From an uncultured Dehalococcoidales bacterium (GTDB taxonomy: Bacteria > Chloroflexota > Dehalococcoidia > E44-bin15), in contig CAYTKL010000001.1 of NCBI GenBank assembly GCA_964438305.1, positions 1 to 48,772 of the forward strand: a stretch of 48,772 nucleotides of DNA. Reading direction: 5' to 3'. Under the pieces are notes generated by a model. The model saw nothing but the letters and a program-made list of their open reading frames with translations, made no database searches and was not told the DNA's origin. This document shows, piece after piece, positions 1 through 38,200 of this stretch (positions are counted from its first letter, which is position 1; the number at the start of each line of letters is the position of its first letter). The translations under genes were made by a program, and so were the position numbers.

Positions 1-142
1 CCCCTGGCCCGGTCGCCAAGGCTGGGCCTCTCCACCTTGACCACGTCGGCCCCCAGGTCGGCAAGAAGCTTGCCGCAATACGGCCCCGACACGAATTCAC
101 TCCACTCGATTACCTTCAACCCAGAAAGCGCCTGCAAACTCA
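1..142 (-). CDS. Family III (CaiB/BaiF) CoA-transferase, B-type paralog, 5' fragment; gene runs off the left edge
   Basis: Reverse complement of 1..142 reads MSLQALSGLKVIEWSEFVSGPYCGKLLADLGADVVKVERPSLGDRARG. This has the same layout as the N-termini of the 1465..2685, 4005..5225 and 6546..7760 products. ATG (cat on plus strand) at 140..142. Confidence 0.8.
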
Positions 143-219
143 TACTAGCTCTCCCATTCCTATTGACATGAACCTGGCCTTCCAGTGCACCAGGTCGAGG
201 ACCGTCTCGCTGCCCTCTA

Positions 220-1458
220 TCATATGACCTGTTCCTCCTGCAAACGGGCTATCTCTTCCGCGGACATGCCCAACAGTTCTCCGAAGACGTAGCCGTTGTG
301 CTCGCCGAGTTCCGGGGCATGCTCGTAGTTCCCCGGTGGGACATCGCTGAGCTTCCACGGGAGGGCAGCCAGACACCATGTGCCCAATCCCGGGTGGTCA
401 ACGTCGAGGTGGAAGCCTCTCTCCCTGAGGTGGGGGTCCTGGATCACCTCCTCCACCCTCAGAGAGGGACCCGCCATCACTCCAGCTCGCTGCAGCATCT
501 CGGCGACCTCATAGTGAGAATGACCCCTCGTCCAGTCCGCAATCAGGGTGTCCAGCTCGTCTCGGTTCTTCCAGCGGTTCAGCCCATCGCGGAACCGTTC
601 ATCACCGGTCCACCCGGGGTTGCCCATGGCGTTACAGAAGGCTCTCCACTCCTCATCACTGGAGACTGCGATGGCGACCCACTCGTCGTCTCCACGACAC
701 CGGTAGCAGCCGTGAGGAGCCATAGCGCCGTCGCGGTTCCCCTGACAGTCCTGTACTCTGCCGTTCATGGTGTAGTCCATAATCGGCTCAAACAGCAGTG
801 AAGACACAACCTCAGTCATGGAGAGGTCTATGTACTGGCCCTCACCGGTTTCTTCGCGATGGTGCAACGCCGCCAGGATGGCCAGGGCCCCGTGCTCCGC
901 CGATGTTACGTCGGCATAGCCGAAGGTTGCCATAGGCCTCGGGTCACCGCCGGGGTATCCGTTCAAACGGCACAGGCCGGCGAAGGCCTCCGTGATGCCA
1001 GCAAAGGCGGGGAACTCCCTGTAAGGTCCCGTTCTGCCGAAGCCCGAGCCGGCGTACATTATGATGTCGGGCTTGAGCCTGGCCAGCTCGGCGTATCCCA
1101 GTCCCCAGCGGTCCATCACTGCCCCGCCGAAGTTCTCGACGACGACATCGCTGATTCCGACTAGCTCCCTGACCAGCTCCTTCGCCCTGGGCTGGGTCAT
1201 GTTGAGGGTGCAGCCTTTCTTCCCGTAGTTGAACTCGGCGAACTCCGAGTTGATGGTGTGACCCGTCGACTGGAGGTTCCAGTAGGCGCGTATCATGTCC
1301 GGACGGAACCTGCTCTCGATCTTGATGACCTCAGCGCCCATGACCGCGAGCCACTGGGTGACGTGGGGCCCGGCCCACACAGCGGTGAAATCGACAACGC
1401 GAATGCCCTGTAGCGGAAGCTTGTGCACCGTGTTCTGCGTACCTCCTCCTGTGCTCAT
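220..1458 (-). CDS. Family III CoA-transferase, A-type paralog (A1)
   Basis: 412-aa ORF. Blocks LPLQGIRVVDFTAVWAGPHVTQWLAVMGAEVIKIES, GSGFGRTGPY and HGALAILAALHHR are typical of CaiB/BaiF-type CoA-transferases. Only 6 nt separate it from the upstream B-type gene. Confidence 0.9.
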   Translation of the reverse strand: MSTGGGTQNTVHKLPLQGIRVVDFTAVWAGPHVTQWLAVMGAEVIKIESRFRPDMIRAYWNLQSTGHTINSEFAEFNYGKKGCTLNMTQPRAKELVRELVGISDVVVENFGGAVMDRWGLGYAELARLKPDIIMYAGSGFGRTGPYREFPAFAGITEAFAGLCRLNGYPGGDPRPMATFGYADVTSAEHGALAILAALHHREETGEGQYIDLSMTEVVSSLLFEPIMDYTMNGRVQDCQGNRDGAMAPHGCYRCRGDDEWVAIAVSSDEEWRAFCNAMGNPGWTGDERFRDGLNRWKNRDELDTLIADWTRGHSHYEVAEMLQRAGVMAGPSLRVEEVIQDPHLRERGFHLDVDHPGLGTWCLAALPWKLSDVPPGNYEHAPELGEHNGYVFGELLGMSAEEIARLQEEQVI

Positions 1459-1464
1459 GAGCTG

Positions 1465-2685
1465 CTAGATGACTCCTTGAGCCCGCATTACCGTCAAGTC
1501 CTCCCTGGTGAAGCCGAGGCGCCCGCAGTAGACCTCCTCGTTGTGCTCGCCCAACAGAGGGGCGGGACGCTTCACCTGCCACGGGGTGCGGGACAGCTTG
1601 TAGGGTGCCCCCGGATACGTGACGTTCCCTGCTTCCCCGTGGTGAATGTCGACGAAGTGGCCCCTGCCGGCCAGGAGTTCAGAGTGCACCGACTCCCGCA
1701 CCGTGTTTATCGCTTTGCAGGGGACACGTGAGGCCTCGGCGAGCCCGACGACCTCGGCGACAGTGTGTTCCATCGTCCATTGCTCGACCATTGCCTTGCC
1801 TGCGTCCCAATTCTCACGTCGCAGCGCCCTGTCCTGAAAGAGGTCGGTCATGGCCCACTCGGGATTGCCCATCGCCTCCACCCACCTTTCCCACATCCTC
1901 TCATCATTGCAGATGAGATAGACCAGGCCGTCACTGCAGCGGTAGACTTCCGAGCCCCCCGGACGTCGGGCCTCCTTGGCTCTCAGCCAGGGAAACTGCT
2001 CAACGGTGTAGTTGCCAAGCTGGTGACGCGTCATGGAGGTCAGAGCTTCTTGCTGCGACAGGTCCACGTGCTGCCCCAAGCCGGTCACGCGGCGCGCGAA
2101 CACCGCGGACATGGTGGTGAGAGCTCCCGTGAGCCCGGCTACGAGGTCGCCTTGATTCACCGGGCCCATGAGCGGAGGTTCCTGCTCGATATCGTCCACC
2201 CCGTCCGACGGGTTTATGTAGGCCATGCCGCTCGCATGGAAGCTGACCAGGTTGCATGTGCGGTAGTCGCGATAGGGGCCGGTCTGGCCGAAGGCCGTGA
2301 TCGAGGTCATCACCAACGCTGGATTCACCTTCCTGAGGTTCTCGTAGCTGAATCCCAGCCGCGCGACATCGCTGGGCGGATGGTTCTCTATCAGGATATC
2401 GGCGCCCTCGATGAGTCGCTTGAAGACCTCCGACCCGGTCCTGCTGCGGACGTCGAGGGTCACTCCGAGCTTGTTGGTATTGAGATAGAGGAACGTCCCG
2501 CTTCTCTCCGGGTGAGGGACGTTGTCGGGAAAGGGGCCGCGGTTCCTTGCCCTATCGCCGCACCCGGGCATCTCGACCTTGGTTACCTCGGCTCCCAAAT
2601 CGGCAAGCAGCTTGCCGCAATAGGGACCGGGAACGCCTTCGGCCCATTCGACTATCTTCAAATTGGAGAGCGCTTGCATGCTCAT
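1465..2685 (-). CDS. Family III CoA-transferase, B-type paralog (B1)
   Basis: 406-aa ORF. N-terminus MSMQALSNLKIVEWAEGVPGPYCGKLLADLGAEVTKVEMPGCGDRAR, followed by ITAFGQTGPY. Confidence 0.9.
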   Translation of the reverse strand: MSMQALSNLKIVEWAEGVPGPYCGKLLADLGAEVTKVEMPGCGDRARNRGPFPDNVPHPERSGTFLYLNTNKLGVTLDVRSRTGSEVFKRLIEGADILIENHPPSDVARLGFSYENLRKVNPALVMTSITAFGQTGPYRDYRTCNLVSFHASGMAYINPSDGVDDIEQEPPLMGPVNQGDLVAGLTGALTTMSAVFARRVTGLGQHVDLSQQEALTSMTRHQLGNYTVEQFPWLRAKEARRPGGSEVYRCSDGLVYLICNDERMWERWVEAMGNPEWAMTDLFQDRALRRENWDAGKAMVEQWTMEHTVAEVVGLAEASRVPCKAINTVRESVHSELLAGRGHFVDIHHGEAGNVTYPGAPYKLSRTPWQVKRPAPLLGEHNEEVYCGRLGFTREDLTVMRAQGVI

Positions 2686-2758
2686 TTCGGTCTGTGTATC
2701 CCATCCGGCGACAGCACATCCAGGGATGTCAGCTTCGGGGATCCCCTGTGGAGATTCG

Positions 2759-3976
2759 TCACAGGATCGCCTCTTCCTCCTGCAGGCGAGTTATCTCCTC
2801 ATCGGACATCTTGAGCAACTCCTTGAACACGTAGTCATTGTGCTCACCAAGACCGGGGCTCGGCCCGTAGTCGCCGCGAGGACCATCAACGACCTTCCAC
2901 GGCAGGCCGGCCATGGGGATAACGCCGATCCCGGGCTGGTCAAGCTCCACGAAGAAGCCTCTCTCCGCCAGATGACGGTCTTGCGCCACGTCCTCCACCT
3001 TCATTGAAGGGCCTGCCATCACTCCCGCCCTCTGCAGTATGTCTGTCGCCTCGAACCGAGTGTGATTCCTTGTCCAATCCGCCACGAGCTGGTCGAGTTC
3101 CTCCTGGTTCTTCCATCGACTGAGGCCGTCGCGGAACCTGTCTTCGTTGGTCCACTGGGGATTCCCCATGGCATTGCAGAAGGCCTCCCACTCCTCATCG
3201 TTGGAGATTGCGATGGCAATCCACTCGTCGTCTCCTTGGCAGCGGTAGCAGCCGTGAGGAGCCATGGCAACATCTCTGTTCCCCTGGGGCCGTGGCACTG
3301 TGCCGTTCATGGTGTACTCCAGGATTGCCTCAGGAAGCAAGGCTCCTACCACCTCGGTCATGGAGAGGTCGATATGCTGTCCTTCCCCAGTCTTCGAGCG
3401 GTGATACAGGGCGGCAAGAATGGCGTACGCGCCGTGCTGCGCCGATGTCAGGTCGGCATACCCTCGAGTCGCCATTGGAAGCGGCTCACTACCGAGGTAG
3501 CCGTTCAGCAAGCACAGCCCTCCCAGGGCCTCCACGATGCCGGCGAAGGCGGGCAACTCGCTGTAAGGGCCGGTTCGGCCGAAACCCGATCCAGAGTACA
3601 GGATGATATCGGGTCTCAGCTTCTTGAGTTCGGGGTAGCCCAGTCCCCAACGGCCCAGCACTGCCCCACCGAAGTTCTCAGCTACGACGTCGCTGAGCTT
3701 GATTATCTCCCTGGCCAGGTCCCTGCCCTTGGGGTTGGTCATGTTCAGCGTACACGCTTTCTTGGCGTAGTTCAACGAAGCGAACACCGCGCTCATGGTG
3801 GGCTCCGTGGTCGTGCGAATGAAGGCGGCGCGCTCAGGGTCGGGGCGAATGTTGCTCTCGATCTTGATGACGTCGGCGCCCATCACCGCCAGCCACTGGG
3901 TGACATGGGGGCCGGCCCAGATGGCGGTGAAGTCCACCACTCTGATGCCCTCCAGGGGAAGCCTTTGTGTGCTCAT
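2759..3976 (-). CDS. Family III CoA-transferase, A-type paralog (A2)
   Basis: 405-aa ORF. LPLEGIRVVDFTAIWAGPHVTQWLAVMGADVIKIES, collinear with A1 and A3. AGGAGG lies upstream of the ATG. Confidence 0.9.
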   Translation of the reverse strand: MSTQRLPLEGIRVVDFTAIWAGPHVTQWLAVMGADVIKIESNIRPDPERAAFIRTTTEPTMSAVFASLNYAKKACTLNMTNPKGRDLAREIIKLSDVVAENFGGAVLGRWGLGYPELKKLRPDIILYSGSGFGRTGPYSELPAFAGIVEALGGLCLLNGYLGSEPLPMATRGYADLTSAQHGAYAILAALYHRSKTGEGQHIDLSMTEVVGALLPEAILEYTMNGTVPRPQGNRDVAMAPHGCYRCQGDDEWIAIAISNDEEWEAFCNAMGNPQWTNEDRFRDGLSRWKNQEELDQLVADWTRNHTRFEATDILQRAGVMAGPSMKVEDVAQDRHLAERGFFVELDQPGIGVIPMAGLPWKVVDGPRGDYGPSPGLGEHNDYVFKELLKMSDEEITRLQEEEAIL

Positions 3977-4004
3977 TGTCCTCCTGCCGTAGAATGCCGG
4001 ACCA

Positions 4005-5225
4005 CTAGATAGCCCCTCCCGCTCTCATGACGGTCAGTTCCTGCCCGGTGTAGCCAAGCCGGTTGCAGTAGACTTCTTCGTTGTGCTCGCCCAGAAGAGG
4101 TGCCGGCCTTTGTACACGCCAGGGTGTCTGCGACAGCTTGAACGGTCCCCCCGGGAACCTGAGCGTGCCGGCTTCCCTGTGGTCGACCTCAGCGAAATAG
4201 TCCCGCGCTGCCGCAAGCTCCGAGGTGGCCAGGTCCTTCACCGTGTTTATCGGCCTGCAGGGAACGCGGCTGGCATCCGCGGTGCGAACGACCTCCTCCA
4301 CTGTCCTCTTCATGGTCCACTCCTCAATCATTGCCTTGACCGCGTCCCAGTTCTCGCGCCGCGAAATCCGGTCCTGAAACAGCTCATTCTGGGCCCAGTC
4401 GGGGTCACCCATCGCTTTCATCCATTCGGCCCAGAATCTGTCCTGCCCGCAAAGGAGGTAGACCATGCCGTCGGCACAGTGATACTTGTCGGAGACCATA
4501 CCAGGAATGCTTCCTTTAAGGCGTGTCCAGGTCATGGCCTCGATGGCGTGAAGCCCGAGGTAGCTGCGCATAATGGAAGCCAGAGCCTCCTGCTCGGACA
4601 CGTCCACATGTTGCCCCGACCCGGTTACCTGACAGTTGAGAACGGCACCCATGGTGGCGACCGCCCCGCTCAGCCCCGCCACGAGATCGCCCTGATGCCC
4701 CGGCCCTTTGAGCGGCGGCTGCCCTTCAGGGTCCTCCACGCCGTCTGACGGGTTCACGAATGCCAACCCGCTCGCGTTGAAGCTGATGAGGTCGCATGAC
4801 CGGTGGTCCCGGTAGGGGCCTGTCTGCCCGAAAGGGGTAATCGACGTCATCACCAGTCTGGGATTGACCTCACACAGGCGCTTGTAGGCGAAGCCCAGTT
4901 CCTCGACTTCGCGGGGTGGGTTGTTCTCTACGAGGACATCAGCCTGTCCCACCAGCTTGCTGAAGACCTCAGCCCCTGTCACCGTTCTGACATCCAGAGT
5001 CACTCCCAGCTTGTTGGTGTTGAGGTAGAGGAACAGGCCGCTCTTCTCCGGGTGAGGTATGTCCTGGGGGAAGGGCCCGTGTCTCCTTGCTCTGTCGCCG
5101 GTCCCCGGTCTTTCGACTTTGATCACCTCGGCTCCCAGGTCAGCAAGGAGTTTCCCACAGTAGGGGCCGGAGACGAAATCGCTCCATTCCACCACCTTCA
5201 AGCCGGAAAGCGCCTGTCCGCTCAT
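4005..5225 (-). CDS. Family III CoA-transferase, B-type paralog (B2)
   Basis: 406-aa ORF. MSGQALSGLKVVEWSDFVSGPYCGKLLADLGAEVIKVERPGTGDRAR, collinear with B1 and B3. Confidence 0.9.
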   Translation of the reverse strand: MSGQALSGLKVVEWSDFVSGPYCGKLLADLGAEVIKVERPGTGDRARRHGPFPQDIPHPEKSGLFLYLNTNKLGVTLDVRTVTGAEVFSKLVGQADVLVENNPPREVEELGFAYKRLCEVNPRLVMTSITPFGQTGPYRDHRSCDLISFNASGLAFVNPSDGVEDPEGQPPLKGPGHQGDLVAGLSGAVATMGAVLNCQVTGSGQHVDVSEQEALASIMRSYLGLHAIEAMTWTRLKGSIPGMVSDKYHCADGMVYLLCGQDRFWAEWMKAMGDPDWAQNELFQDRISRRENWDAVKAMIEEWTMKRTVEEVVRTADASRVPCRPINTVKDLATSELAAARDYFAEVDHREAGTLRFPGGPFKLSQTPWRVQRPAPLLGEHNEEVYCNRLGYTGQELTVMRAGGAI

Positions 5226-5298
5226 ATCTGTGTAGCCTCGTCCTCTTTCTCGCCAGTCGTATTCCAGGGCGTCAACCCGGGGAGTCCCGCGATGCCGT

Positions 5299-6519
5299 CT
5301 AGAAGATGACCTGCTCCTCCTGTAGCCGGGCTATCTCCTCTTCAGGCATCTTGAGCAGCTCTCTGAACACGTAGTCATTGTGCTCGCCAATCGAGGGAGC
5401 ATGCTCGTACTTGCCGAAAGGGCTATGATTCATATTCAATGGCAGACGGGGCAAACGGACCTTCCCCATCTCGGGATGCTCCATGTCGATGAAGAACCCT
5501 CTCTCAGCCAGATGGCGGTCTTGCACCACCGCTTGAGGGCTGAGCGTCGGCCCGGCCATCACCCCCGCCTCCTGCAATAGTACCGCTGCCTGCCAGTCAG
5601 TGTAGTTGCTTGTCCAACCCTGTATCAGCCGGTCCAGCTCCTCCTGGTTCGTCCACCGGCTCAATCCGTCGCGGAACCTCTCATCGTCGGCCCACTCAGG
5701 GTCGCCCATGGCATGGCAGAGGGCCTCCCATTCCTCGTCAGTGGATACGGCGATGGTGACCCAGTTGTCCTCACCCTGGCACCGGTAGCATCCGTGTGGC
5801 GCCATGGCGATGTCTCGGTTCCCCTGGGGTCGCTGCACTCTATCGTTCATGGTGTAGTCCATAATGGCGTCGGGCAGGAAAGCACAACCGACCTCGCTCA
5901 TGGACAGGTCGATGTGTTGCCCCTCCCCCGTTCTGAAACGGTGATGCAGCGCCGCCAGGATGGCGAAGGCGCCATGTTGAGCCGCTGTCAGGTCGGTCCA
6001 GCCGCCAACGCCGAAGGGGACTGGCCCGCCGCCTGCGTATCCATTAAGAGACGTCAACCCGGCAAAGGCGTCGATTATGGGGGCATACGCGGGGAACTCC
6101 TTGTAGGGCCCCGTTCTTCCGAAGCCGGACCCGGAGTACAGGATAATGTCGGCCCTCAGCTTCTTCAGGTCCGGGTATCCCAGCCCCCAGCGCTCCATCA
6201 CCGGCCCGCCGAAGTTCTCGGTCACAACATCGCTCAACTTGATTATCTCTTTGACAAGCTCAATGCCCCTGGGGAGGGTCATGTTGATGGTGCACCCTTT
6301 CTTGGTGTAGTTGAGCACAGCGAAATCCACGCTCTGGTTGAGCCCTGGCATGAGCGTCTTGCCGCCGGCGAAGAAACTACGGGTAAGGTCGGGGCGCAGG
6401 TGGCTCTCGATCTTGATGACCTCCGCCCCCATCACCGCCAGCCATTGGGTAACATGCGGCCCCGCCCAAACATGGCAGAAGTCAGCGACTCTGATGCCTT
6501 CAAGTGGCAGTTCTTGCAC
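5299..6519 (-). CDS. Family III CoA-transferase, A-type paralog (A3)
   Basis: 406-aa ORF. LPLEGIRVADFCHVWAGPHVTQWLAVMGAEVIKIES, collinear with A1 and A2. Confidence 0.9.
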   Translation of the reverse strand: MQELPLEGIRVADFCHVWAGPHVTQWLAVMGAEVIKIESHLRPDLTRSFFAGGKTLMPGLNQSVDFAVLNYTKKGCTINMTLPRGIELVKEIIKLSDVVTENFGGPVMERWGLGYPDLKKLRADIILYSGSGFGRTGPYKEFPAYAPIIDAFAGLTSLNGYAGGGPVPFGVGGWTDLTAAQHGAFAILAALHHRFRTGEGQHIDLSMSEVGCAFLPDAIMDYTMNDRVQRPQGNRDIAMAPHGCYRCQGEDNWVTIAVSTDEEWEALCHAMGDPEWADDERFRDGLSRWTNQEELDRLIQGWTSNYTDWQAAVLLQEAGVMAGPTLSPQAVVQDRHLAERGFFIDMEHPEMGKVRLPRLPLNMNHSPFGKYEHAPSIGEHNDYVFRELLKMPEEEIARLQEEQVIF

Positions 6520-6545
6520 GTTGCTCGCCTCCCATTCTCAAGCTT

Positions 6546-7760
6546 CTAGATAACGCCTTCGGCTCTCATCACCGCCAGGTCTTGCCTGCTGTACCCCAGC
6601 CGTCCGCACAGGACCTCTTCGTTGTGCTCGCCCAGCAACGGTGCGGGGCGTTGCACCTGCCACGGGGTCTGGGACAGCTTGTAGGGCGCTCCCGGGAACC
6701 TTACCCTTCCCACCTCTTCTCGGTCGACCTCGGCGAAGTAGTTCCGAGCGGCCAGTTGCTCGGAGTTGGTGGATTCCTTCACAGTATTGACCGGCATGCA
6801 GGGGACGCGTCTGGCTTGCGCGGCACGGACCAGCTCACCCAGGCTCTGGTCCTTGGCCCACTCCTCGATCATTATCTTGGCCGCATCCCAGTTCTCCCGA
6901 CGTGCGGCGCGGTCCTGGAACAGCTCGCTGGCGGCCCATTCGGGGTTGCCCATTACCTCCACCCAATTGGCCCAGAACCTGTCGGTGTTGCAGACGACGA
7001 AGAACTGGCCGTCTCTGCACTGTCCCAGCAACGTCTCAGTGCTCGGTTGGGCCCCCTTCACCCGAATCCTTTCGAGACCCTCGTAGGTTGCCGCGCCCAA
7101 ATCACGTCGTATTACCGAGGCCAGAGCCTCGTGTTGCGACAGGTCCACGTGCCGTCCCTGTCCTGTGGCATGACGAGCGAAGACGGCTGACATTGTGGCG
7201 ATCGCCCCGCTCAAACCGGCCAGGAAATCAGCTTGAAGCGATTTCCCCCGCAGCGGCGGTTCTTCCTGGATGTCGTCGACCCCGCCCGACGGGTTCATAT
7301 GAGCCAGCCCGCTGACGTGGAAACTGACGAGGTCGCAGGCTTTGTAGTCGCGGTAGGGCCCGCTCTGCCCGAAGGGCGTGATCGAGGTCATTACCAGCCC
7401 TGGATGGGCCTTGCTGAGCGTACGGTAGTCGAACCCCAGTTCCTCGACTTCCCGTGGTGAGTGGTTCTCGATGAGAATATCGGCCTGCGTGACCAGCTCC
7501 TTGAGAATCTCGGCGCCGGTGACGCTGGCCCAATTCAAGGTCACTCCCAGCTTGTTGGTGTTGAGATACAGATAGAGTCCGCTCTTCTCGGTATGGGGCA
7601 GGTCCTGGGGGAAGGGTCCGTAGCTCCTTGACCTGTCGCCATAGCCGGGCTTCTCGACCTTGACCACTTCGGCACCCAGGTCAGCGAGGAGCTTGCCACA
7701 GTAGGGCCCCGAGATGAACTCGCCCCACTCAATCACCTTCAAATCGGAAAGCGCACCCAT
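6546..7760 (-). CDS. Family III CoA-transferase, B-type paralog (B3)
   Basis: 404-aa ORF. MGALSDLKVIEWGEFISGPYCGKLLADLGAEVVKVEKPGYGDRSR. Confidence 0.9.
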   Translation of the reverse strand: MGALSDLKVIEWGEFISGPYCGKLLADLGAEVVKVEKPGYGDRSRSYGPFPQDLPHTEKSGLYLYLNTNKLGVTLNWASVTGAEILKELVTQADILIENHSPREVEELGFDYRTLSKAHPGLVMTSITPFGQSGPYRDYKACDLVSFHVSGLAHMNPSGGVDDIQEEPPLRGKSLQADFLAGLSGAIATMSAVFARHATGQGRHVDLSQHEALASVIRRDLGAATYEGLERIRVKGAQPSTETLLGQCRDGQFFVVCNTDRFWANWVEVMGNPEWAASELFQDRAARRENWDAAKIMIEEWAKDQSLGELVRAAQARRVPCMPVNTVKESTNSEQLAARNYFAEVDREEVGRVRFPGAPYKLSQTPWQVQRPAPLLGEHNEEVLCGRLGYSRQDLAVMRAEGVI

Positions 7761-7799
7761 AGAACATACTCCCTTTGACAGTACTCGGCGGACAGAGGC

Positions 7800-9020
7800 C
7801 TACACAAGCACTTCAGCCTCTTCCAGGTGACGAATCTCAGCTTCGGACAGTCCCAGCAGCTCGCCCAGCACGTAGGCCGTATGCTCACCCAGGAGAGCTG
7901 GGCGTCTGGCGACGCCTGGCGATTCAGCCAGGCGCATGACCACGCCAGGATAGGACGCCACGCCCATCTTGGGATGGTCTATTCGAACGTAGGTCCCTCT
8001 ATGTGCTAGCTGAGGGCAGTTCGCCTGGTCCTGCCCATCCAGCACAGCGGCGGCCGGCACCCCGGCCTTCTGCAGCACCTCCATTACCTCGAGATGGGTG
8101 CGGTTGGCGGTCCACTCCTCGACACGGCGGTCGAGCTCATCTCGGTTATCCAGCCGGCCCAAGACGGTGGCGAATCTGGGTTCCTCCGTCCACGGAGGGT
8201 TGCCCAGAGCGCCGCAGAACCTCCTCCACTCGTCATCATTCCTGACCTCGATGGCACACCATCGCTCTTCCCCCATGCAGGGATAGGCGCCGTACGGTGC
8301 GGCATAGGGACTGTGGTTGCCCCTTCGTTCCTGCAGCCGACCGTTGACGGTGTAGTCCATGTACACGCTCTCCATGATGGTCGCCGCATTCTCCACCTGG
8401 GCCATGTCGATGAACTGTCCCTTGCCGGTGCGGTTGCGGTACTCAACGGCTGCCATGATCATAAGGGCCGCCGTGACGCCGGCGAGATAGTCCGTGGGGT
8501 AGCCCCCCGAGCCTGTCGGGGTGGGGATGTCCGGGAATCCCCACACGTAGGTGAGACCGGCCAGAGGCATGAGGTTCATACCCCACAGCACGTACTCGTG
8601 CTCCGGCCCGGTCTGTCCCAGGCCCTGCATGCTGACCATGATGAAATCGGACTTCACTTCCCTCAGTCCCCAGTAGTCCAGCCCGAACCCGCGCAGAACA
8701 CGGGCACCGAAGTTGTCTATGGCGGCATCACTGAGCTCGACCAGGCGCTTGATGAGCTCTCTGCCCTCCTCCTTCTTGAGGTCCACGCTGATACTCATCT
8801 TGCCGCGGTTGTACTCCGCCCAGCTCCACGACTTGTCGAAGTCCGGCTCAGTGTCCTTGGGATAGACGAGCCTGGGTCGCCGGAACGTGTCCAGGCGCTT
8901 CCTCGTCTCCACCACGATCACTTCCGCTCCGAAGTCGCACAACAACCTCCCGGCATACGGCCCGGCTATGCCGTTGGTGAAGGAGATTATCCTGATACCC
9001 TCGAGGGGGAGTGCGCTCAT
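7800..9020 (-). CDS. Family III CoA-transferase, divergent A-type paralog (A4)
   Basis: The ORF track gives 7800..9305. I trimmed it to the internal ATG at 9020 (MSALPLEGIRIISFTNGIAGPYAGRLLCDFGAEVIVVE), because the upstream 95 codons are Arg/Ser-rich and overlap the next gene. Resulting length is 406 aa, like the other copies. Confidence 0.85.
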   Translation of the reverse strand: MSALPLEGIRIISFTNGIAGPYAGRLLCDFGAEVIVVETRKRLDTFRRPRLVYPKDTEPDFDKSWSWAEYNRGKMSISVDLKKEEGRELIKRLVELSDAAIDNFGARVLRGFGLDYWGLREVKSDFIMVSMQGLGQTGPEHEYVLWGMNLMPLAGLTYVWGFPDIPTPTGSGGYPTDYLAGVTAALMIMAAVEYRNRTGKGQFIDMAQVENAATIMESVYMDYTVNGRLQERRGNHSPYAAPYGAYPCMGEERWCAIEVRNDDEWRRFCGALGNPPWTEEPRFATVLGRLDNRDELDRRVEEWTANRTHLEVMEVLQKAGVPAAAVLDGQDQANCPQLAHRGTYVRIDHPKMGVASYPGVVMRLAESPGVARRPALLGEHTAYVLGELLGLSEAEIRHLEEAEVLV

Positions 9021-9051
9021 CGCCCGCTTCACTTCCTTTGGATTCTCCAGT

Positions 9052-10284
9052 TCATATGACACCCGAAGCGCTGAGAGCACACAATTCCTCGCTCGACAGC
9101 CCCAGTTCTCCGCAGTAGACCTCCGCGTTGTGCTGGCCGATGAGCGGGGCGGGACGCTCGATTGCCTCCCACGGCACGGCGAGGTTGTAGGGCGAGCCGG
9201 GATACAGTTGTCTCCCGACCACGGGGTGATCGCCCTCAACGAAGAAACCTCTCGCCTTCGTCTGCGGACTGTCAAAGAAATCGGCCGGCGTTTGCACCGG
9301 CGCAATGGGGAAATGCCTTGCCTGTCCCTCTTTGTACAGCTCCGCCTTGGTGTACTTCATGGTGTGCTCAGTAATGTATGGGTTCAACACATCGACGTTC
9401 TGACGACGGAAGTTCGGGTCCTCCCACACCGGCTCAGCAAGCACCTCAGGGCTGCCAATCCACTCGACGAAGGATGGCCAGCTACCGGGCGCATTGCCGG
9501 GGACAAGCCCGCCAACGACGTAGGCATGTCCGTCTTTGCACGGATAGATGGCGGCCGGGGCTGTCGTGTGCTGGCTTCCGTGACGGGTCACGATCTCCTC
9601 GAAATTGAGCCACCTGGTCGCCATCCCCTCTCCGATGCTGGTGGCCGAGACGTCGTGAATGGCGATATCCACGTGTTGCCCTGCACCAGTCACGGAGCGA
9701 TGACGGAGGGCGATGAGGGTAGCCAGAGCGGCATGGAGCGCGGTGTTGTGCAGCGCCATCAAGATGGGCGATACGCTCGGCGGGCGAGAAGGCTCCCCGC
9801 ACTGAAACATGGCGCCCATGGCGAAGCTTATCAGTTCGGTGGTCTTGAAATCTCTGTAGGGTCCGTTCTGCCCGAAGCCGGTGATCGAGGTCATGATCAG
9901 TGACGGGTTGGCCTCAGCCAGGGCCGAGTAACCGAGCCCCAGGCTGTCCAGGTGCCCGGGAGACAGGGACTCCACCACTACATCCGCGTCACTCACCAGC
10001 CTCTTGAAGATTTCCTGTCCGTCTCGGCACTCGATGTTGAGGGTAATGCCCCTTTTGTGCCGATTGTAGTAGAGGAAGAAGAAACCCTTCTCGGGGTGAG
10101 GGTCGTCACCAGCGAAAGGAGGTATACTCCTGGTCTCGTCGCCGCCGGGTCTCTCTATCTTGACGGTGTCGGCGCCGAACTCGGCCAGGAGCTTCCCACA
10201 GTAGACGCCCTTCTCATCAGCTACCTCGATGACTCTATAGGGACTTAAAGGAGCGCCATTCCTCCTTTTGTTGGATGCGGTCAT
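9052..10284 (-). CDS. Family III CoA-transferase, divergent B-type paralog (B4), first gene of the array
   Basis: The ORF track gives 9052..10479. I trimmed it to the ATG at 10284 (MTASNKRRNGAPLSPYRVIEVADEKGVYCGKLLAEFGADTVKIERPGGD). ITGFGQNGPY is present. No clear SD, so the start is uncertain by a few codons. Confidence 0.8.
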   Translation of the reverse strand: MTASNKRRNGAPLSPYRVIEVADEKGVYCGKLLAEFGADTVKIERPGGDETRSIPPFAGDDPHPEKGFFFLYYNRHKRGITLNIECRDGQEIFKRLVSDADVVVESLSPGHLDSLGLGYSALAEANPSLIMTSITGFGQNGPYRDFKTTELISFAMGAMFQCGEPSRPPSVSPILMALHNTALHAALATLIALRHRSVTGAGQHVDIAIHDVSATSIGEGMATRWLNFEEIVTRHGSQHTTAPAAIYPCKDGHAYVVGGLVPGNAPGSWPSFVEWIGSPEVLAEPVWEDPNFRRQNVDVLNPYITEHTMKYTKAELYKEGQARHFPIAPVQTPADFFDSPQTKARGFFVEGDHPVVGRQLYPGSPYNLAVPWEAIERPAPLIGQHNAEVYCGELGLSSEELCALSASGVI

Positions 10285-10335
10285 GTTGCGTGTTGTATCT
10301 GTGAGGCTAGTTTCCCAGGCGAAGCTTCCATGCAC

Positions 10336-10364
10336 ATTGTACGTGACGGCGAACTTGCCGTCAA
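10336..10364 (-). promoter_or_regulatory. Candidate sigma70 promoter for the CoA-transferase array (TTGACG-17-TACAAT)
   Basis: On the minus strand, the -35 TTGACG is plus 10359..10364, the spacer is 17 nt, and the -10 TACAAT is plus 10336..10341. It lies ~50 nt upstream of the 10284 start. Confidence 0.4.
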
Positions 10365-10451
10365 TTCCCTGTGGGCGGCGTTGGAGGTCGAGTCGCTGTT
10401 TCGGGTGAGTCGGCGCCTGCCATTTCGAGGCCGATAGGGGGTATCTCCAGA

Positions 10452-10480
10452 TTGACACTCCTATGGAAGTCGGATACACT
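10452..10480 (+). promoter_or_regulatory. Candidate sigma70 promoter for the mutase operon (TTGACA-17-TACACT)
   Basis: TTGACA at 10452..10457, 17-nt spacer, TACACT at 10475..10480. It is followed by the palindrome GCGTTGCAGCAACGC (10493..10507) and the SD AGGAGGA (10512..10518). Confidence 0.4.
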
Positions 10481-10523
10481 TCAATACAGTGAGCGTTGCA
10501 GCAACGCAGGTAGGAGGACTTGT

Positions 10524-12179
10524 ATGCCTAGCAAGAGCAAACAAGAGTGGCGGGATACCACCCTCAATAAGGCGTTGAGCCGTGCCCCAGAGCGTCAGGA
10601 GAGCTTTGAGATCAGCTCAGGGAGTGCGATCGACGCGCTGTATACACCTGAGGACCTGGAGGGGCACCCCTACGTAGATGACGTGGGGTATCCGGGAGAG
10701 TACCCCTTCACCCGCGGTATCCAGCCCACCATGTACCGGGGAAGGCTGTGGACCATGCGGCAGTACGCCGGGTTTGCCGACGCTGAGGAGTCCAACAAGC
10801 GCTACCGGTACCTTCTGGAACAGGGGCAAACGGGGTTGAGCATAGCCTTCGACCTTCCGACCCAGATCGGCTACGATTCAGACCACCCGATGGCTGCGGG
10901 GGAGGTTGGGAAGGTAGGGGTGGCGATAGACAGCCTGGCCGATGTCGAGGTGCTTTTCGACCAGATTCCCCTGGGTAAGGTAAGTACGTCGATGACGATA
11001 AACTCGACCGCACCGGTGTTGCTCGCCATGTACGTCGCCCTGGCCAAGAAGCAGGGAGTCGATCCAAAGGAGCTGAACGGTACAATCCAGAACGACATTC
11101 TGAAGGAGTACGTTGCCCGTGGCACTCATATCTTCCCGCCGCGGCCGTCGATGCGCCTGATAACCGATATCTTCAAGTACTGCGGGGAAGAAGTCCCCCG
11201 CTGGAACACCATAAGTATCAGCGGCTACCACATCAGGGAGGCGGGTTCCACGGCGGCGCAGGAGGTCGGTTTCACGCTGGCCAATGGCATCGCCTATGTT
11301 CAGGCGGCCATTGACGCCGGTCTGGACGTCGATGCCTTCGCCGGTAGACTCTCCTTCTTCTTCGCTTCCTACGGCAACCTCTTCGAGGAGGTGGCGAAGT
11401 TCAGGGCGGCTCGTCGCCTGTGGGCCAGGATCATGCGCGAACGTTTTGGGGCCAAAGAGCCTCGAAGCTGGATGCTGCGCTTCCACACCCAGACCTGCGG
11501 CCATACATTGACCGCGCAGCAGCCACTGAACAACATCATCAGGACTGCAGTGCAGGCTCTGGCGGCCGTGCTTGGCGGGACCCAATCCCTTCACACTAAC
11601 TCGTACGACGAGGCCTACGCTACCCCCAGCGAGGACGCGGTGACCATTGCCTTGCGTACCCAGCAACTGCTGGCCTATGAGACGGATGCCGCCAACATGG
11701 TGGACCCTCTAGGGGGCTCATTCATGGTGGAGTCACTGACCAATACCCTGGAGGAGGAAGCGAAAAACTACATAGCCAAGATTGACGAAATCGGTGACGC
11801 GCTGGCGGCGATCGAGGAAGGGTACCCGCAGCGGGAGATCCAGGAGAGTTCCTATCGAACCCAGAACGATATTGAGAGTGAGAAGAAGGTCGTGGTGGGC
11901 GTGAACAAGTTTGTCTCCCCCTATCCCAAGATAACAGGCCTTCTCAAGTTCGACCCTCAGGTGGCGATCAGGCAGAAGGAGCGCCTGGCTCAAGTGAAGC
12001 AAAGCAGGGACGGCGCCAAGGTGGGCGCTGCGCTGGAGAAGCTGCAGAAGGTGGCGTCGGGCAGCGACAACACCATGCCGGCGGTGTTGGAGTGCGTCGA
12101 GGCGTACGCAACCATCGGTGAAGTATGCGACGTACTTCGGGGAGTCTTTGGCGAACAAAGGGAATTCCTTGCCTTCTAG
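10524..12179 (+). CDS. Methylmalonyl-CoA mutase family, catalytic (N-terminal TIM-barrel) subunit
   Basis: ORF trimmed to the ATG at 10524, which follows AGGAGGA. Blocks [62 protein letters not shown] and [12 protein letters not shown] are characteristic of MCM large subunits. There is no B12 domain in this ORF. Confidence 0.9.
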
Positions 12180-12211
12180 GCATAGCGGACAAAGGAGCAA
12201 AGGAGGAAATA

Positions 12212-12610
12212 ATGATCAAGCGGATCGACCACGTCTCCATCGCGGTGAAGGACCTCGATGAAGCCTTGGGGGTCTTCAAGGCTGTCTTTGGGCTCGAGTC
12301 AGTGCACCAAGAGGAAATCCCCGATCAGGGGGTGAAGGCAGCCCTTATCAAGGTCGGCGATGGCGAGATCGAGCTTGTTGAGCCGATAGACCCCGAAGGA
12401 GGGGTAGCGAAGTTCATCGAAAGGCGGGGCGAGGGCATTCATCATATCTGCCTTGAGGTGGACAACATCGATGAGGAACTGAAGTCGCTGGAAGCGAAGG
12501 GTGTGGCCCTCATCGACAAGCAGCCGCGAAGAGGTCTGGCGGGAATGATTGGCTTTGTGCATCCCAAGGCGACAAAGGGGGTGCTGGTGGAGCTGGCTCA
12601 GAAGGTGTGA
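12212..12610 (+). CDS. mce: Methylmalonyl-CoA epimerase (VOC/glyoxalase fold), copy 1
   Basis: Trimmed to the ATG at 12212, which follows AGGAGGA. MIKRIDHVSIAVKDLDEAL, EIELVEP, GIHHICLEV and GVLVELAQ give the H/E/H/E metal-ligand pattern of MCE. Confidence 0.8.
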   Translation: MIKRIDHVSIAVKDLDEALGVFKAVFGLESVHQEEIPDQGVKAALIKVGDGEIELVEPIDPEGGVAKFIERRGEGIHHICLEVDNIDEELKSLEAKGVALIDKQPRRGLAGMIGFVHPKATKGVLVELAQKV

Positions 12611-12674
12611 TCGCGATCCCGCTGCGATAAGACAGGACCTGTCATGCACCCGAGTACGATGCTGGGGGGGAAGG

Positions 12675-13061
12675 ATGATAAAGGGAATCGGTCATGCGGG
12701 GATTCTAGTCAGCAATCTCGATGAGGCGGTGGAGTTGTACTGTGACCTGTTTGGCCTGGAGCCGCTCACACAGGTAACTGACTGGCCCGGGGAAGGAATG
12801 AAGAACGTACTGCTGAAGGTGGGCAATCAAGCCTTTGAAGTGATGGAGCCGACCGACCCTCAGGGTGGTCTGGCGCGGTTCCTGGAGCGGCGTGGTGAGG
12901 GATTGCATCACCTGAACCTCGAGGTCGATGACGTGGACGGCCTGGTCAAGTCGCTGGAGGCCAAGGGTGTGGTCACACTCGGGAGAGGGCCGGGTTTCTG
13001 TTTCCTGCACCCCAAGTCAACCAGGGGTGTTCTGTTCGAGCTTATTCAAAGCGCAAAGTAA
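12675..13061 (+). CDS. Methylmalonyl-CoA epimerase-like VOC protein, copy 2 (paralog)
   Basis: Trimmed to the ATG at 12675. MIKGIGHAGILVSNLDEAV, AFEVMEP, GLHHLNLEV and GVLFELIQ are collinear with copy 1. Confidence 0.75.
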   Translation: MIKGIGHAGILVSNLDEAVELYCDLFGLEPLTQVTDWPGEGMKNVLLKVGNQAFEVMEPTDPQGGLARFLERRGEGLHHLNLEVDDVDGLVKSLEAKGVVTLGRGPGFCFLHPKSTRGVLFELIQSAK

Positions 13062-13073
13062 GGAGAGTCCTTA

Positions 13074-13478
13074 ATGGAGGAAAAGATCAGGGTCTTGATT
13101 GCCAAGCCGGGCCTGGACGGCCATGACCGAGGCGCAAAGCTGGTGGCCCGCATTCTTCGCGACGCCGGGATGGAGGTCATCTATAGCGGGTTACGCCAGA
13201 CCCCGGACATGATCGCCGAAGCCGCACTGCAGGAGGATGTCCAGGTTGTGGGGTTGAGCATCCTTTCCGGGGCGCACATGGAGATCTTCCCTGCAATCTT
13301 AGAACGTCTCAAGGAAAAGGGATTGGACAAGGTGGTTGTGGTCGCCGGCGGGATTATCCCCGAGGAGGATGTCCCCGCTCTGGACAAGATCGGCATAAAG
13401 GCCGTTTTCGGTCCGGGCGCTTTGAGTCAGGAAATCGTTGACTCCATCAAGAAGGCGGTGGCCAAGGGAGCCAACTAG
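13074..13478 (+). CDS. Methylmalonyl-CoA mutase B12-binding (C-terminal domain) subunit
   Basis: 134-aa ORF after the [37 protein letters not shown] carries the DxHxxG cobalamin-binding signature. GLSILSGAH and [10 protein letters not shown] are also present. Confidence 0.9.
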
Positions 13479-36146: not shown

Positions 36147-36716
36147 CTAGGGCCGGGCATAGACGATGATATCGATGCTGATGGTCCAGTACGCCGGCTC
36201 CTCTTCGGTGGCGACGACGAACTCGATGACTACGTTCTTTATGACCGTGGTCTCGTACGGTGCGTTCACCTCCAGTTCATCGAGGAAGGCATAGAGGGCC
36301 GGCAGCTTGTCCGCGGCGGCGCCAACCTCATAAATGAAGGCTTTGTACACCGTCCCGTTGTTGTTCAGAAACACGTCGATCGGGCCCTCGGGGATGAAGC
36401 GCTGGCCCTGGACTTCAGCGTTCTGGAGCCCGTAGATCACGAGGTCGTTGACTTCGATGTTCTCCACGTCGTCGGCTTTGGGGAAAGCCGAATCATCGAG
36501 TTCTTCCTGGAGGGTGGCAAGGGCGGCTTCCAGTGCGTCCAGGTCGTACTGGTTCTCGATGCTGGCGATGTCACTTTCTACGTCGGCCATCTGTGTCTCC
36601 AGGTCGGAAGCCGCTTGCACCTGCTGCACGATGACTACGGTGAAGTATACCCCCAGTCCAATCAGGGCGACCACCGCCACCAAGAGGAGGAGCTGTAGTT
36701 GAGTCAGCTTCTTCAT
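36147..36716 (-). CDS. PilO-like bitopic pilus assembly protein
   Basis: 189 aa. Short N-terminus, one TM (LQLLLLVAVVALIGLGVYFTVVIV), a coiled-coil-like acidic segment and a small C-terminal domain. The call rests on position (between the PilN-like gene and PilM) and topology only. Confidence 0.4.
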   Translation of the reverse strand: MKKLTQLQLLLLVAVVALIGLGVYFTVVIVQQVQAASDLETQMADVESDIASIENQYDLDALEAALATLQEELDDSAFPKADDVENIEVNDLVIYGLQNAEVQGQRFIPEGPIDVFLNNNGTVYKAFIYEVGAAADKLPALYAFLDELEVNAPYETTVIKNVVIEFVVATEEEPAYWTISIDIIVYARP

Positions 36717-38200
36717 TCAGCACCTCCTGTTTGCTTGAGTGTTACAGTGATGATGAAGGCGTAGGGAGGGGTGTATCCAGTGACTTCCCAGTAGAGGTAG
36801 TCGTAGGCCTCCTCCATCGATATGGTATCGTCCTCGTTCACATCCGCGGGTCCGTTAAGTCCCTCGACGAAGTAGTAGGTGAACACCCCGTTCTCTAACA
36901 GAGGGTCTTCGTAGGAGTACTGCTCTTCGTCACAGGCGGTGAGTACCACACCCTCTATTGTCTCGTTGAGGTCCCGGGCAAAGCCGTCGCCATCACGCGG
37001 CGCAACTTCGCCGGGAGAGCCCTTGCTCGCGGCAAGGCCGTACTTGAACATGCCGCCACTGTAGCAGGTGTCGATCGCTACCAACACGGGGCTGCCAGGC
37101 AGTCCGCCAAGCCACACGCCCAGCTCATCATCCGTGATGCCCGACATTGGGTCGAAGAAGTCGAAGTCGTATGGGCAGAGGACCTCGTCGTAGTCATCGG
37201 CTTCGTCGAGCGGCATTTGGTCGGCAATGATGCCTCCGTGTCCCGAGAAGTAGAAGAAGAAAACGTCGTCGGCGTCACCGTTGGCTGCCATGTAGTCGAT
37301 GGCGTCCTCTATCCCCGACTTGGTCGCGGCATCGTCTATGAGCATAGTGATGTGGCTATCCTGCCAGTTGGGGTAGTCAAGCAGCACCTCACGTACGTCC
37401 TCGGCATCGTCGTCGGTGTAGCTCAGAGGAGTGAGACCCTGGCCCGGTGGATAGTCGGCGACTCCGACGATCACCGCCCAGTACTCCACGCCAACTGTGA
37501 CGTTGGCTGCTGTGACCAGGGTGGCTTCACCTGTCCAGTTGTCGTACATCTGGGGCGTCTGCTCCAGGTCAGCCCTTCCCCTTTCGGTAATCTGATAGGT
37601 CCACTCGATGTCCGGGTCGTAGGGAGGTGAATCGTGGAACAACTCGCTCTCAAGAAGGGCGTGAGCATACTCGGAGATGCGGATGCTGGCGTCGGTGATG
37701 CCCTCGACGACTACCTGATTGCCGTCCTGGGCGATGTAGGTCAGGTCTATTTCCGCCGGTGCCAGGTCATCGATCTCTTCCACGACGTCGGACCACGGCG
37801 CGTAGGTGAACATCTGGTCGTAGGCCTGTTCATAGTCGACCAGTGTGCTGGTCGTGCTGTCGATCTCCTCCAGCATCGACTTCGCCTGCGGTATCAGGTT
37901 GGTCTTGAGTCCACTCAGGTGGTCCTGGCGCTGCGCTAGCTCCGCCTCGAGGTCAGCTACGTGGTCCTGCTTGTCCGACATGTATCCATAGAGATTGGGC
38001 AGGTCCGGCGCAGCCTCGACCATGGCGAAGGGCAGCATCGCGTACCCTAGAATCAGAACGAGGACCACGAGGAGGATGCTGAGGTTGGGCACCGAGACGG
38101 ACAGTTGGGACTTGGCCGTGCTGTGCTTCACCTTGCCGTCAAAGAGATTGATCTCGAGCGGCGAATCTGTGCGGTCCAGAGGTTCCTGTTTGTCAGCCAT
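36713..38200 (-). CDS. PilN-like pilus assembly protein fused to a caspase-like (peptidase C14-type) domain
   Basis: - **PilN-like part (residues 1-190):** EINLFD (compare the PilN INLLP motif), TM LSILLVVLVLILGYAMLPFAMV, a coiled coil, and WSDVVEEIDDLAPAEIDLTYIAQDGNQVVVEGITDASIRISEYAHALLESELF.
- **Caspase-like part (residues ~238-470):** YWAVIVGVADY, DDVFFFYFSGHG (His321, codon 37238..37240), VLVAIDTCYSG (Cys379, codon 37064..37066) and NGVFTYYFVEGLNGPADVNEDDTISMEEAYDYL. Confidence 0.8.
   Translation of the reverse strand: MADKQEPLDRTDSPLEINLFDGKVKHSTAKSQLSVSVPNLSILLVVLVLILGYAMLPFAMVEAAPDLPNLYGYMSDKQDHVADLEAELAQRQDHLSGLKTNLIPQAKSMLEEIDSTTSTLVDYEQAYDQMFTYAPWSDVVEEIDDLAPAEIDLTYIAQDGNQVVVEGITDASIRISEYAHALLESELFHDSPPYDPDIEWTYQITERGRADLEQTPQMYDNWTGEATLVTAANVTVGVEYWAVIVGVADYPPGQGLTPLSYTDDDAEDVREVLLDYPNWQDSHITMLIDDAATKSGIEDAIDYMAANGDADDVFFFYFSGHGGIIADQMPLDEADDYDEVLCPYDFDFFDPMSGITDDELGVWLGGLPGSPVLVAIDTCYSGGMFKYGLAASKGSPGEVAPRDGDGFARDLNETIEGVVLTACDEEQYSYEDPLLENGVFTYYFVEGLNGPADVNEDDTISMEEAYDYLYWEVTGYTPPYAFIITVTLKQTGGAE

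Follow-up and report, generated by a model that had tools for sequence, protein, structure and literature searches.

The benzylsuccinate coenzyme A (CoA)-transferase BbsEF is an alpha2beta2 enzyme (PMC5592240). Its two different family III CoA-transferase subunits come from adjacent co-directional genes, and the same arrangement recurs at a Dehalococcoidales locus on contig CAYTKL010000001.1 (assembly GCA_964438305.1), of which positions 1 to 48,772 of the forward strand were analysed and are referred to here as the window (48,772 nucleotides, nt). At this locus, a two-gene cassette for a BbsEF-like CoA-transferase has been duplicated in tandem to five, probably six, copies, all of them old and each consisting of a B-type gene followed by an A-type gene. 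We consider it likely, from the sequence comparisons set out below, that each cassette encodes a BbsEF-type heteromer of a catalytic A subunit and an obligate B subunit with a divergent pocket, and probably with an acid of its own. The A-type subunits resemble chain B of the solved benzylsuccinate CoA-transferase 9fn0 and the B-type subunits chain A, and BbsE is, as aligned here, without the catalytic Asp, as are two B subunits of the array (B0 and B4). The array differs from BbsEF, on the other hand, in that it is without the bss/bbs beta-oxidation context, shares an identity of only ~35–40%, contains five to six paralogous cassettes instead of one, and includes three B subunits that keep the Asp.

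Other described systems share part of this plan. SmtAB (succinyl-CoA:malate CoA-transferase) of the same phylum is described as made of two family III subunits and as acting on succinyl-CoA with dicarboxylic acids, but it is a single pair in the 3-hydroxypropionate bi-cycle and not an array. DddD, a dimethylsulfoniopropionate CoA-transferase/lyase, has two CaiB-like domains in one chain (PMC7174347). Compared by architecture alone, it has two family III domains per unit, as in 17 loci in which B- and A-type domains are fused, whereas the window subunits are encoded by separate genes. In SAR202 Chloroflexi, a large expansion of CaiB/BaiF paralogues has been read as providing ATP-free entry points for diverse acids (PMC5395668); the part of that account considered here counts dispersed paralogues and describes neither heteromeric cassettes nor tandem alternating arrays. 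Finally, Frc and YfdW share with the array proteins the fold, the Asp169 column and an N-terminal CoA-binding motif, and B2 matches the N-terminal half of YfdW with 166 bits. They are, however, homodimers with two identical sites, and the array proteins miss the NCBIfam formyl-CoA transferase models, scoring 170–249 bits against 442 and 504.2.

The alternating cassettes and their spacers

An open reading frame (ORF) listing with translation gives eight complete and one truncated family III CoA-transferase genes on the minus strand, with B and A strictly alternating. The eight complete proteins each cover the PF02515 (CaiB/BaiF) profile end to end (~1–366), with 289–362 bits against a cut-off of 23.3. 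The genes, and one of the spacers between cassettes, are as follows, with L-numbers as our handles for other loci:

9052-10284, minus strand: B4, B-type (BbsE-like) subunit, promoter-proximal; PF02515 288.6 bits; the Asp column reads ILMALHN, with Leu for Asp
7800-9020, minus strand: A4, A-type (BbsF-like) subunit with catalytic Asp; PF02515 322.7 bits; diverged from A0–A3
6546-7760, minus strand: B3, B-type subunit, Asp kept; PF02515; orthologue L005:3659-4876, bootstrap 98
5299-6519, minus strand: A3, A-type catalytic subunit with a GTG start; PF02515; orthologue L005:4910-6124, bootstrap 98
5226-5298, minus strand: inter-cassette spacer of 73 nt, from the A3 stop to the B2 start (from the spacer comparison)
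4005-5225, minus strand: B2, B-type subunit, Asp180 kept; PF02515 and match to solved structures
2759-3976, minus strand: A2, A-type catalytic subunit, Asp175; PF02515 and match to solved structures
1465-2685, minus strand: B1, B-type subunit, Asp kept, 6 nt upstream of A1; PF02515
220-1458, minus strand: A1, A-type catalytic subunit; PF02515; exact protein on four other contigs
1-143, minus strand: B0, of which the window edge leaves the first 47 codons; from translation, complete on L001

The original prediction, made from the DNA letters of the window, had counted ten genes, nine of them complete, and had placed the B0 start at 142; there are nine, eight complete and one cut, and B0 starts at 143. 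Its strict alternation of two paralogue classes is borne out by the ORF calls and by global protein identities, which are 62–67% among A1–A3 and 61–64% among B1–B3 but 26–33% between A and B proteins. A4 is 37–39% identical to the other A proteins and B4 39–41% to the other B proteins, and the statement that the inner copies are about two-thirds identical, with B4/A4 distant, thus agrees with the values obtained (61–67% versus 37–41%). The sequence motif offered for the A-type, on the other hand, fits A0–A3 and not A4.

Gaps within pairs are 31, 26, 28 and 6 nt and those between pairs 39, 73, 73 and 76 nt, all as predicted except for the last, which had been given as 77 nt. The length of the spacer is near-fixed, with 73 nt at 5226-5298 and 2686-2758 and 76 nt at 144-219, and in the relatives L085, L086 and L005 it is 73–74 nt in all but one matching spacer; the 73–76-nt spacer is part of the duplicated unit. 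The spacers are also weakly alike, with a TTGA(C/T)-like element and a purine-rich stretch ahead of the B start, and they could hold internal promoters or processing sites. No terminator-like sites were found between array genes, and a single promoter-like site, a consensus match only, lies upstream of B4. No Rfam families, riboswitches included, were found in or near the array, the sole match in the window being one tRNA.

Extent and history of the array

The array had been predicted to continue beyond the left edge of the window, and other contigs show that it does. Four further metagenome contigs have the array, with an A1 protein identical to that of the window. L001, which has 6 differences from the window in 8934 bases, runs beyond the left edge and adds complete B0 and A0 genes, after which it ends in the 3' part of a convergent gene (L001:11279-11419) whose product is identical at 45 of 46 residues to the C-terminus of a 296-residue class I methyltransferase:

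L001:8792-10012: complete B0, 406 residues, Gly at the catalytic Asp column (from the L001 contig)
L001:10047-11258: complete A0, 403 residues (from the L001 contig)
L001:11279-11419 (part), L085:16321-17211, L005:11252-12142 and L086:11255-12145: class I S-adenosylmethionine-dependent methyltransferase, 296 residues, on the strand opposite to the array (PF08241/PF13649)

This methyltransferase, which matched no NCBIfam model, is the sole non-transferase gene inside the array; all relatives examined have it between cassette 0 and the final one. After it, L085, L086, L005 and L088 each carry one further B–A pair, cassette −1. A contig from a sister sample, L095, matches L001 with 98% identity across 3 kb and shows B0/A0, a 1.1-kb gap at the position of the relatives' methyltransferase, and then another pair; like L085, it carries a sixth pair. 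For this population, five cassettes are thus documented and a sixth is predicted by synteny. The closest genome matches are uncultured Dehalococcoidales and Dehalococcoidia metagenome-assembled genomes (MAGs), and the order of the cassettes in the relatives is as follows, with MT for the methyltransferase:

Window with L001: 4, 3, 2, 1, 0, MT fragment
L085, ~92% identity to window proteins: 4, 3, 2, 1, 0, MT, −1
L086, 75–83% identity to window proteins: 4, 3, 1, 0, MT, −1
L005, 72–79% identity to window proteins: remnant of 4, then 3, one unassigned pair, 0, MT, −1
L005:2963-4879: relic ORF of 638 residues, with the N-terminal part of B4 joined to the B3 orthologue

B4 is 93% identical to L085_g1. 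Cassette 2 is absent from L086, and in L005 the relic ORF records a further loss: its first 191 residues are 76% identical to the B4 N-terminus, a 23-residue stretch matches B4 residues 271–293, and the remainder is the B3 orthologue, which indicates that a deletion took the remainder of B4 and the whole of A4 in the L005 lineage. In a neighbour-joining (NJ) tree, which underlies all bootstrap values given here, A3 and B3 group with their L005 counterparts with support of 98 each, and the orthologous groupings of A0 and B0 have 92 and 74. Such orthologous cassettes with high bootstrap values mean that the duplications are older than these lineages and have been kept with occasional loss. The earlier description of old, retained duplications thus holds, with orthologous cassettes standing in the same order in relatives at 75–92% identity. 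The inner cassettes form a near-star radiation at 62–72% identity. B4 and A4 each group weakly with a Binatia pair, and on this comparison B4/A4 is best seen as a separately diverged cassette outside the inner radiation and not as the oldest product of one duplication series. Among 160 loci from two scans, at least three tandem cassettes were found only in this Dehalococcoidales clade, with two in a few other loci.

That the number of repeats is an artefact of assembly was considered, since short-read metagenomes can mis-assemble tandem repeats, and rejected. The inner copies are only 68–72% identical in DNA, which makes collapse or expansion during assembly implausible, and at least five independent contigs agree, the order being repeated in the four other contigs, in L085 and in the L093–L095 contigs. 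We give this explanation practically no weight.

Subunits, catalytic asymmetry and the acyl pocket

The best match of A2 among solved structures is 9fn0 chain B, with 227 bits versus 78 for chain A, while B2 scores 163 bits on chain A versus 128 on chain B. By these matches the A-type is classed as BbsF-like and the B-type as BbsE-like. The NJ tree places the B-type proteins, BbsE included, in one clade (bootstrap 90), with the A-type proteins as a sister assemblage together with BbsF, whose exact position among them has poor support; the A subtree parallels the B subtree locus by locus. "BbsF subunit" is also the automatic name given to many A homologues by the Joint Genome Institute. None of the NCBIfam equivalogs compared (formyl-CoA, succinyl-CoA:mesaconate and succinate–glutarate transferases, YfdE, CaiB and Mct) was reached, the best scores being 170–249 bits against cut-offs of 413–750. 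No bss/bbs genes lie among the neighbours of the array in the window, and in view of this missing benzylsuccinate pathway context we do not file the proteins as benzylsuccinate transferases. Judged by similarity, these cassettes add new members, as yet uncharacterised, to the BbsEF-type branch of family III CoA-transferases.

The two subunits differ most plainly at the nucleophilic Asp that family III chemistry needs (PMC9196870). At this column (Asp169 of Frc, CaiB and YfdW), Asp is present in 104 of 105 non-redundant A proteins versus 25 of 112 B proteins. Within the array it is found in A0–A4 and B1–B3, with Gly in B0 and Leu in B4, and BbsE, as aligned here, has Tyr. Among orthologues of cassettes 0 and −1, the B residue switches among Asp, Gly and Ser and the A Asp is invariant. 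This lability shows that the B Asp is not under the selection expected of an essential nucleophile.

B and A genes also keep close company. In a B-seeded metagenome scan, counting only B genes with at least 900 nt of downstream sequence, 65 of 67 are followed by an A gene within 400 nt. An A-seeded genome scan found ~25 loci with B directly upstream of A, and the reverse order in some loci; the pairs come from Dehalococcoidia, Binatia, delta-proteobacterial MAGs, Desulfobacteraceae, Dethiosulfatibacter and Spirochaetaceae. Furthermore, at 17 loci from several phyla a single ORF of ~800–900 residues fuses a B-type and an A-type domain, in either order, and the B-type domain of these fusions is usually without the catalytic Asp:

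L012:498-2936, L021:8789-11194, L034:5352-7994 and L039:9992-12640: examples of B/A fusion ORFs, with 13 other loci

These observations bear directly on whether A and B could instead be independent homodimeric CoA-transferases, that is, ten to twelve enzymes that alternate only through duplication of a two-gene block. Most characterised family III enzymes are homodimeric (PMC9196870), no catalytic feature is missing from the A proteins, A-type genes also occur singly, and B1–B3 keep the Asp. However, B0 and B4 are without the nucleophile, as are most B proteins in the count above, B is almost never found without an adjacent A, B–A fusion proteins exist, and the solved structures nearest to A and B are the two chains of a single heteromer. 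The complementary divergence of large and small domains described below would also be unexpected of homodimers, which we consider improbable. A heteromeric transferase in each cassette, as originally predicted, has indirect but converging support from the 9fn0 chain matches, the adjacency count, the fusion loci and the loss of Asp in B.

Where the cassettes differ from one another is equally asymmetric. We defined cassette-specific positions as those with a mean within-group conservation of at least 0.9 and at least three consensus residues among the five inner cassette groups. With domain limits carried over by numbering from the 407-residue Mct structure, and not taken from a model of these proteins, 34 of the 38 such positions in A fall in the large domain and 4 in the small domain and linkers, whereas in B the split is 8 and 23 of 31 (Fisher p=6e-8). 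Residues A 41–67 hold 15 of the 38 (p=2e-10) and B 219–264 hold 17 of the 31 (p=4e-10); further clusters in A lie at 151–177, the loop before Asp175, and at 343–375. Identity among paralogues is reciprocal, at 0.40 in A 41–67 versus 0.69 in B 41–67, and 0.75 in A 219–264 versus 0.40 in B 219–264. The segment of A-type proteins after IKIES..RPD that had been called hypervariable is thus real and corresponds to residues 41–67, with 40% identity among A paralogues versus 65–67% across the remaining protein. No position in A 41–80 varies within orthologue groups, so that the segment is cassette-specific and not unconstrained.

In the structural account of PMC9196870, Arg47, Asp165, the alpha6–alpha7 loop that precedes the Asp and a loop from the partner's small domain hold the acyl end, and in Frc a loop from the linker-1 region points into the active site. 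Allowing for offsets of 10–15 residues, A 41–67, A 151–177 and B 219–264 would correspond to three elements of one composite site. The idea of a battery of enzymes for different carboxylic acids gains support from this clustering, on one acyl pocket, of positions that are conserved within cassettes and differ between them. In the literature searched we found no description of split-pocket divergence or of tandem alternating heteromeric cassettes; the paper on 9fn0, which lies outside that literature, may describe the inactive BbsE site.

On the heteromeric reading, the array, which lies on a single strand, would probably be co-transcribed, and the short gaps within pairs would favour coupled translation and cognate assembly. 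B and A of each cassette would form an interlocked heterodimer, possibly (BA)2 as in BbsEF. The large Rossmann domain of the BbsF-like A would carry the nucleophilic Asp and give most of the CoA and acyl site, and the small domain of the BbsE-like B would close over the A active site as a lid. B's own Asp would be dispensable, leaving one active site per dimer. The chemistry would be that of family III, in which attack of the Asp on the donor thioester gives an anhydride, into which the acceptor acid exchanges before CoA-S− attacks once more. The cassettes would diverge mainly at the pocket elements A 41–67, A 151–177 and B 219–264, and divergence at the acyl pocket suggests that each cassette probably activates a different carboxylic acid, ATP-free, from a common acyl-CoA donor. 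We infer that this donor may be succinyl-CoA, as it is for BbsEF and for several class III enzymes with dicarboxylate substrates.

Heterodimers need not be cognate: B and A subunits made together could also pair across cassettes, so that the number of possible pockets would exceed the number of cassettes. Such mixing would fit the single-strand layout without intervening terminators, the division of the specificity elements over two subunits and the apparently conflicting histories of B2/B(−1) and A0/A(−1). The gaps of 6–31 nt within pairs versus 39–76 nt between them suggest, on the other hand, translational coupling and cognate assembly, and orthologous B and A remain together across genomes; we consider non-cognate pairing rather unlikely. 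Equally doubtful in our view is a fully combinatorial system of six A by six B subunits, with up to 36 pockets, in which the labile B Asp would represent a second site switched on and off in evolution.

Several points weigh against cognate heteromers that duplicated as units. First of all, an A-type gene stands alone in L091 (Spirochaetota, 57% identical to A2), with no partner within 9 kb, and the L090 A-type gene is without an adjacent partner; such stand-alone genes make A homodimers possible. Second, B1–B3 keep the Asp together with a highly conserved CoA-binding N-terminal region, and may have a second working site. Third, A–A and B–B distances among the inner cassettes show no significant correlation (mirror-tree, r=0.31, p=0.38), and the nearest relative of B2 is B(−1) (~71%), whereas that of A(−1) is A0. 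It is thus not demonstrated that B and A of the array duplicated strictly as a unit, and recombination or gene conversion between cassettes may have left this discordance. The genes in question are:

Window 4005-5225, L085:17387-18610 and L005:12378-13601: B genes of cassettes 2 and −1, discordant with their A partners

Finally, the large- and small-domain split depends on limits borrowed from Mct, as stated above. The weakest of the original inferences is the link of the array to the succinyl/methylmalonyl-CoA pool, which is plausible and is based on synteny in one clade.

The mutase operon, the wider neighbourhood and what the array means

Upstream of B4, the array faces away from a methylmalonyl-CoA mutase operon across a short intergenic region:

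10285-10523, no strand: divergent intergenic region, 239 bp, with two outward-facing promoter-like hexamer pairs (consensus matches only)
10524-12179, plus strand: split methylmalonyl-CoA mutase, catalytic subunit; PF01642 753.6 bits, TIGR00641 783 versus a cut-off of 303.8
12125-13061, plus strand: two glyoxalase-fold genes, methylmalonyl-CoA epimerase and then an epimerase-like paralogue; TIGR03081 146.9 and 91.9 bits, cut-off 114.95
13074-13478, plus strand: B12-binding mutase subunit; TIGR00640 169.3 bits
13478-13735, plus strand: small NIL-domain protein; PF09383

The promoter-like hexamers run from 10364 to 10336 on the minus strand towards the array and from 10452 to 10480 on the plus strand towards the mutase, whose ATG at 10524 is preceded by GGAGG. 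The mutase is 86% identical to that of L005 in the matching position. The epimerase-like paralogue (12549-13061), below the TIGR03081 cut-off, is kept in L005 and L085, and L085 has the gene order of the window for the B12-binding subunit and the NIL-domain protein. In the window, L085, L086 and L005, the mutase gene lies beyond cassette 4 and divergent from it, with further operon genes where the locus reaches. L085, L086 and L005 are, however, collinear with the window more widely than this neighbourhood, and of 80 A-seeded genome loci compared with the window mutase and epimerases by tblastn, only L005 matched. The link between mutase and array is confined to one collinear clade and is therefore not independent evidence of coupling.

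This setting is what would favour reading the proteins as family III isomerases or racemases, Mct- or AMACR-like, that act on methylmalonyl/succinyl-type thioesters with the adjacent mutase and epimerases. Such enzymes belong to the family, and four related genomes have the array next to the mutase operon. Mct and AMACR, on the other hand, are matched with 65–113 bits versus 227 for BbsF, and B–A pairs in the other lineages sampled have no mutase nearby, so that we hold this reading to be very unlikely and retain the BbsEF-type transferase.

The neighbourhoods of distant homologues vary (2-hydroxyacyl-CoA dehydratase-like, PrpD/MmgE, or nothing relevant) and offer no shared clue to the substrate. 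On another Dehalococcoidales contig (L090:5603-14970), small unannotated ORFs lie between an A-type gene and another family III gene situated 2.2 kb upstream of it. These genes adjoin BcrAD/BadFG activator-like and HGD-D genes (2-hydroxyacyl-CoA dehydratase or benzoyl-CoA-reductase-like), and L090 represents a different metabolic context of the same enzyme branch. The remaining window encodes TGT, FdhD, an acyl-CoA dehydrogenase, a ClC channel, shikimate genes, AlaRS, trehalose genes and a type IV pilus cluster. This cluster (prepilin peptidase, PilB-like, PilC-like) holds two unusual genes at 36713-38200 and 40472-41884, of which one combines a PilN-like segment with a caspase (Peptidase_C14) domain and one is pilin-like, with an N-terminal methylation motif and a proprotein-convertase P-domain.

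The array is an unusually long gene-family expansion of a known enzyme type, and no new enzyme class or pathway. Family III CoA-transferases are nevertheless among the most expanded and least understood families in sediment and deep-ocean Chloroflexota, and many of their genes carry automatic names such as "BbsF subunit" or "CaiB-like". If the cassettes do encode heteromers of B and A in which a single composite pocket diverges fast, it is the pair and not the gene that should be taken as the enzyme in annotation and metabolic modelling, without a second transferase being scored for B. The array also offers a matched natural series, in which candidate specificity residues are narrowed to ~40 positions in A 41–67, A 151–177 and B 219–264, a set that makes substrate screening and pocket engineering tractable.

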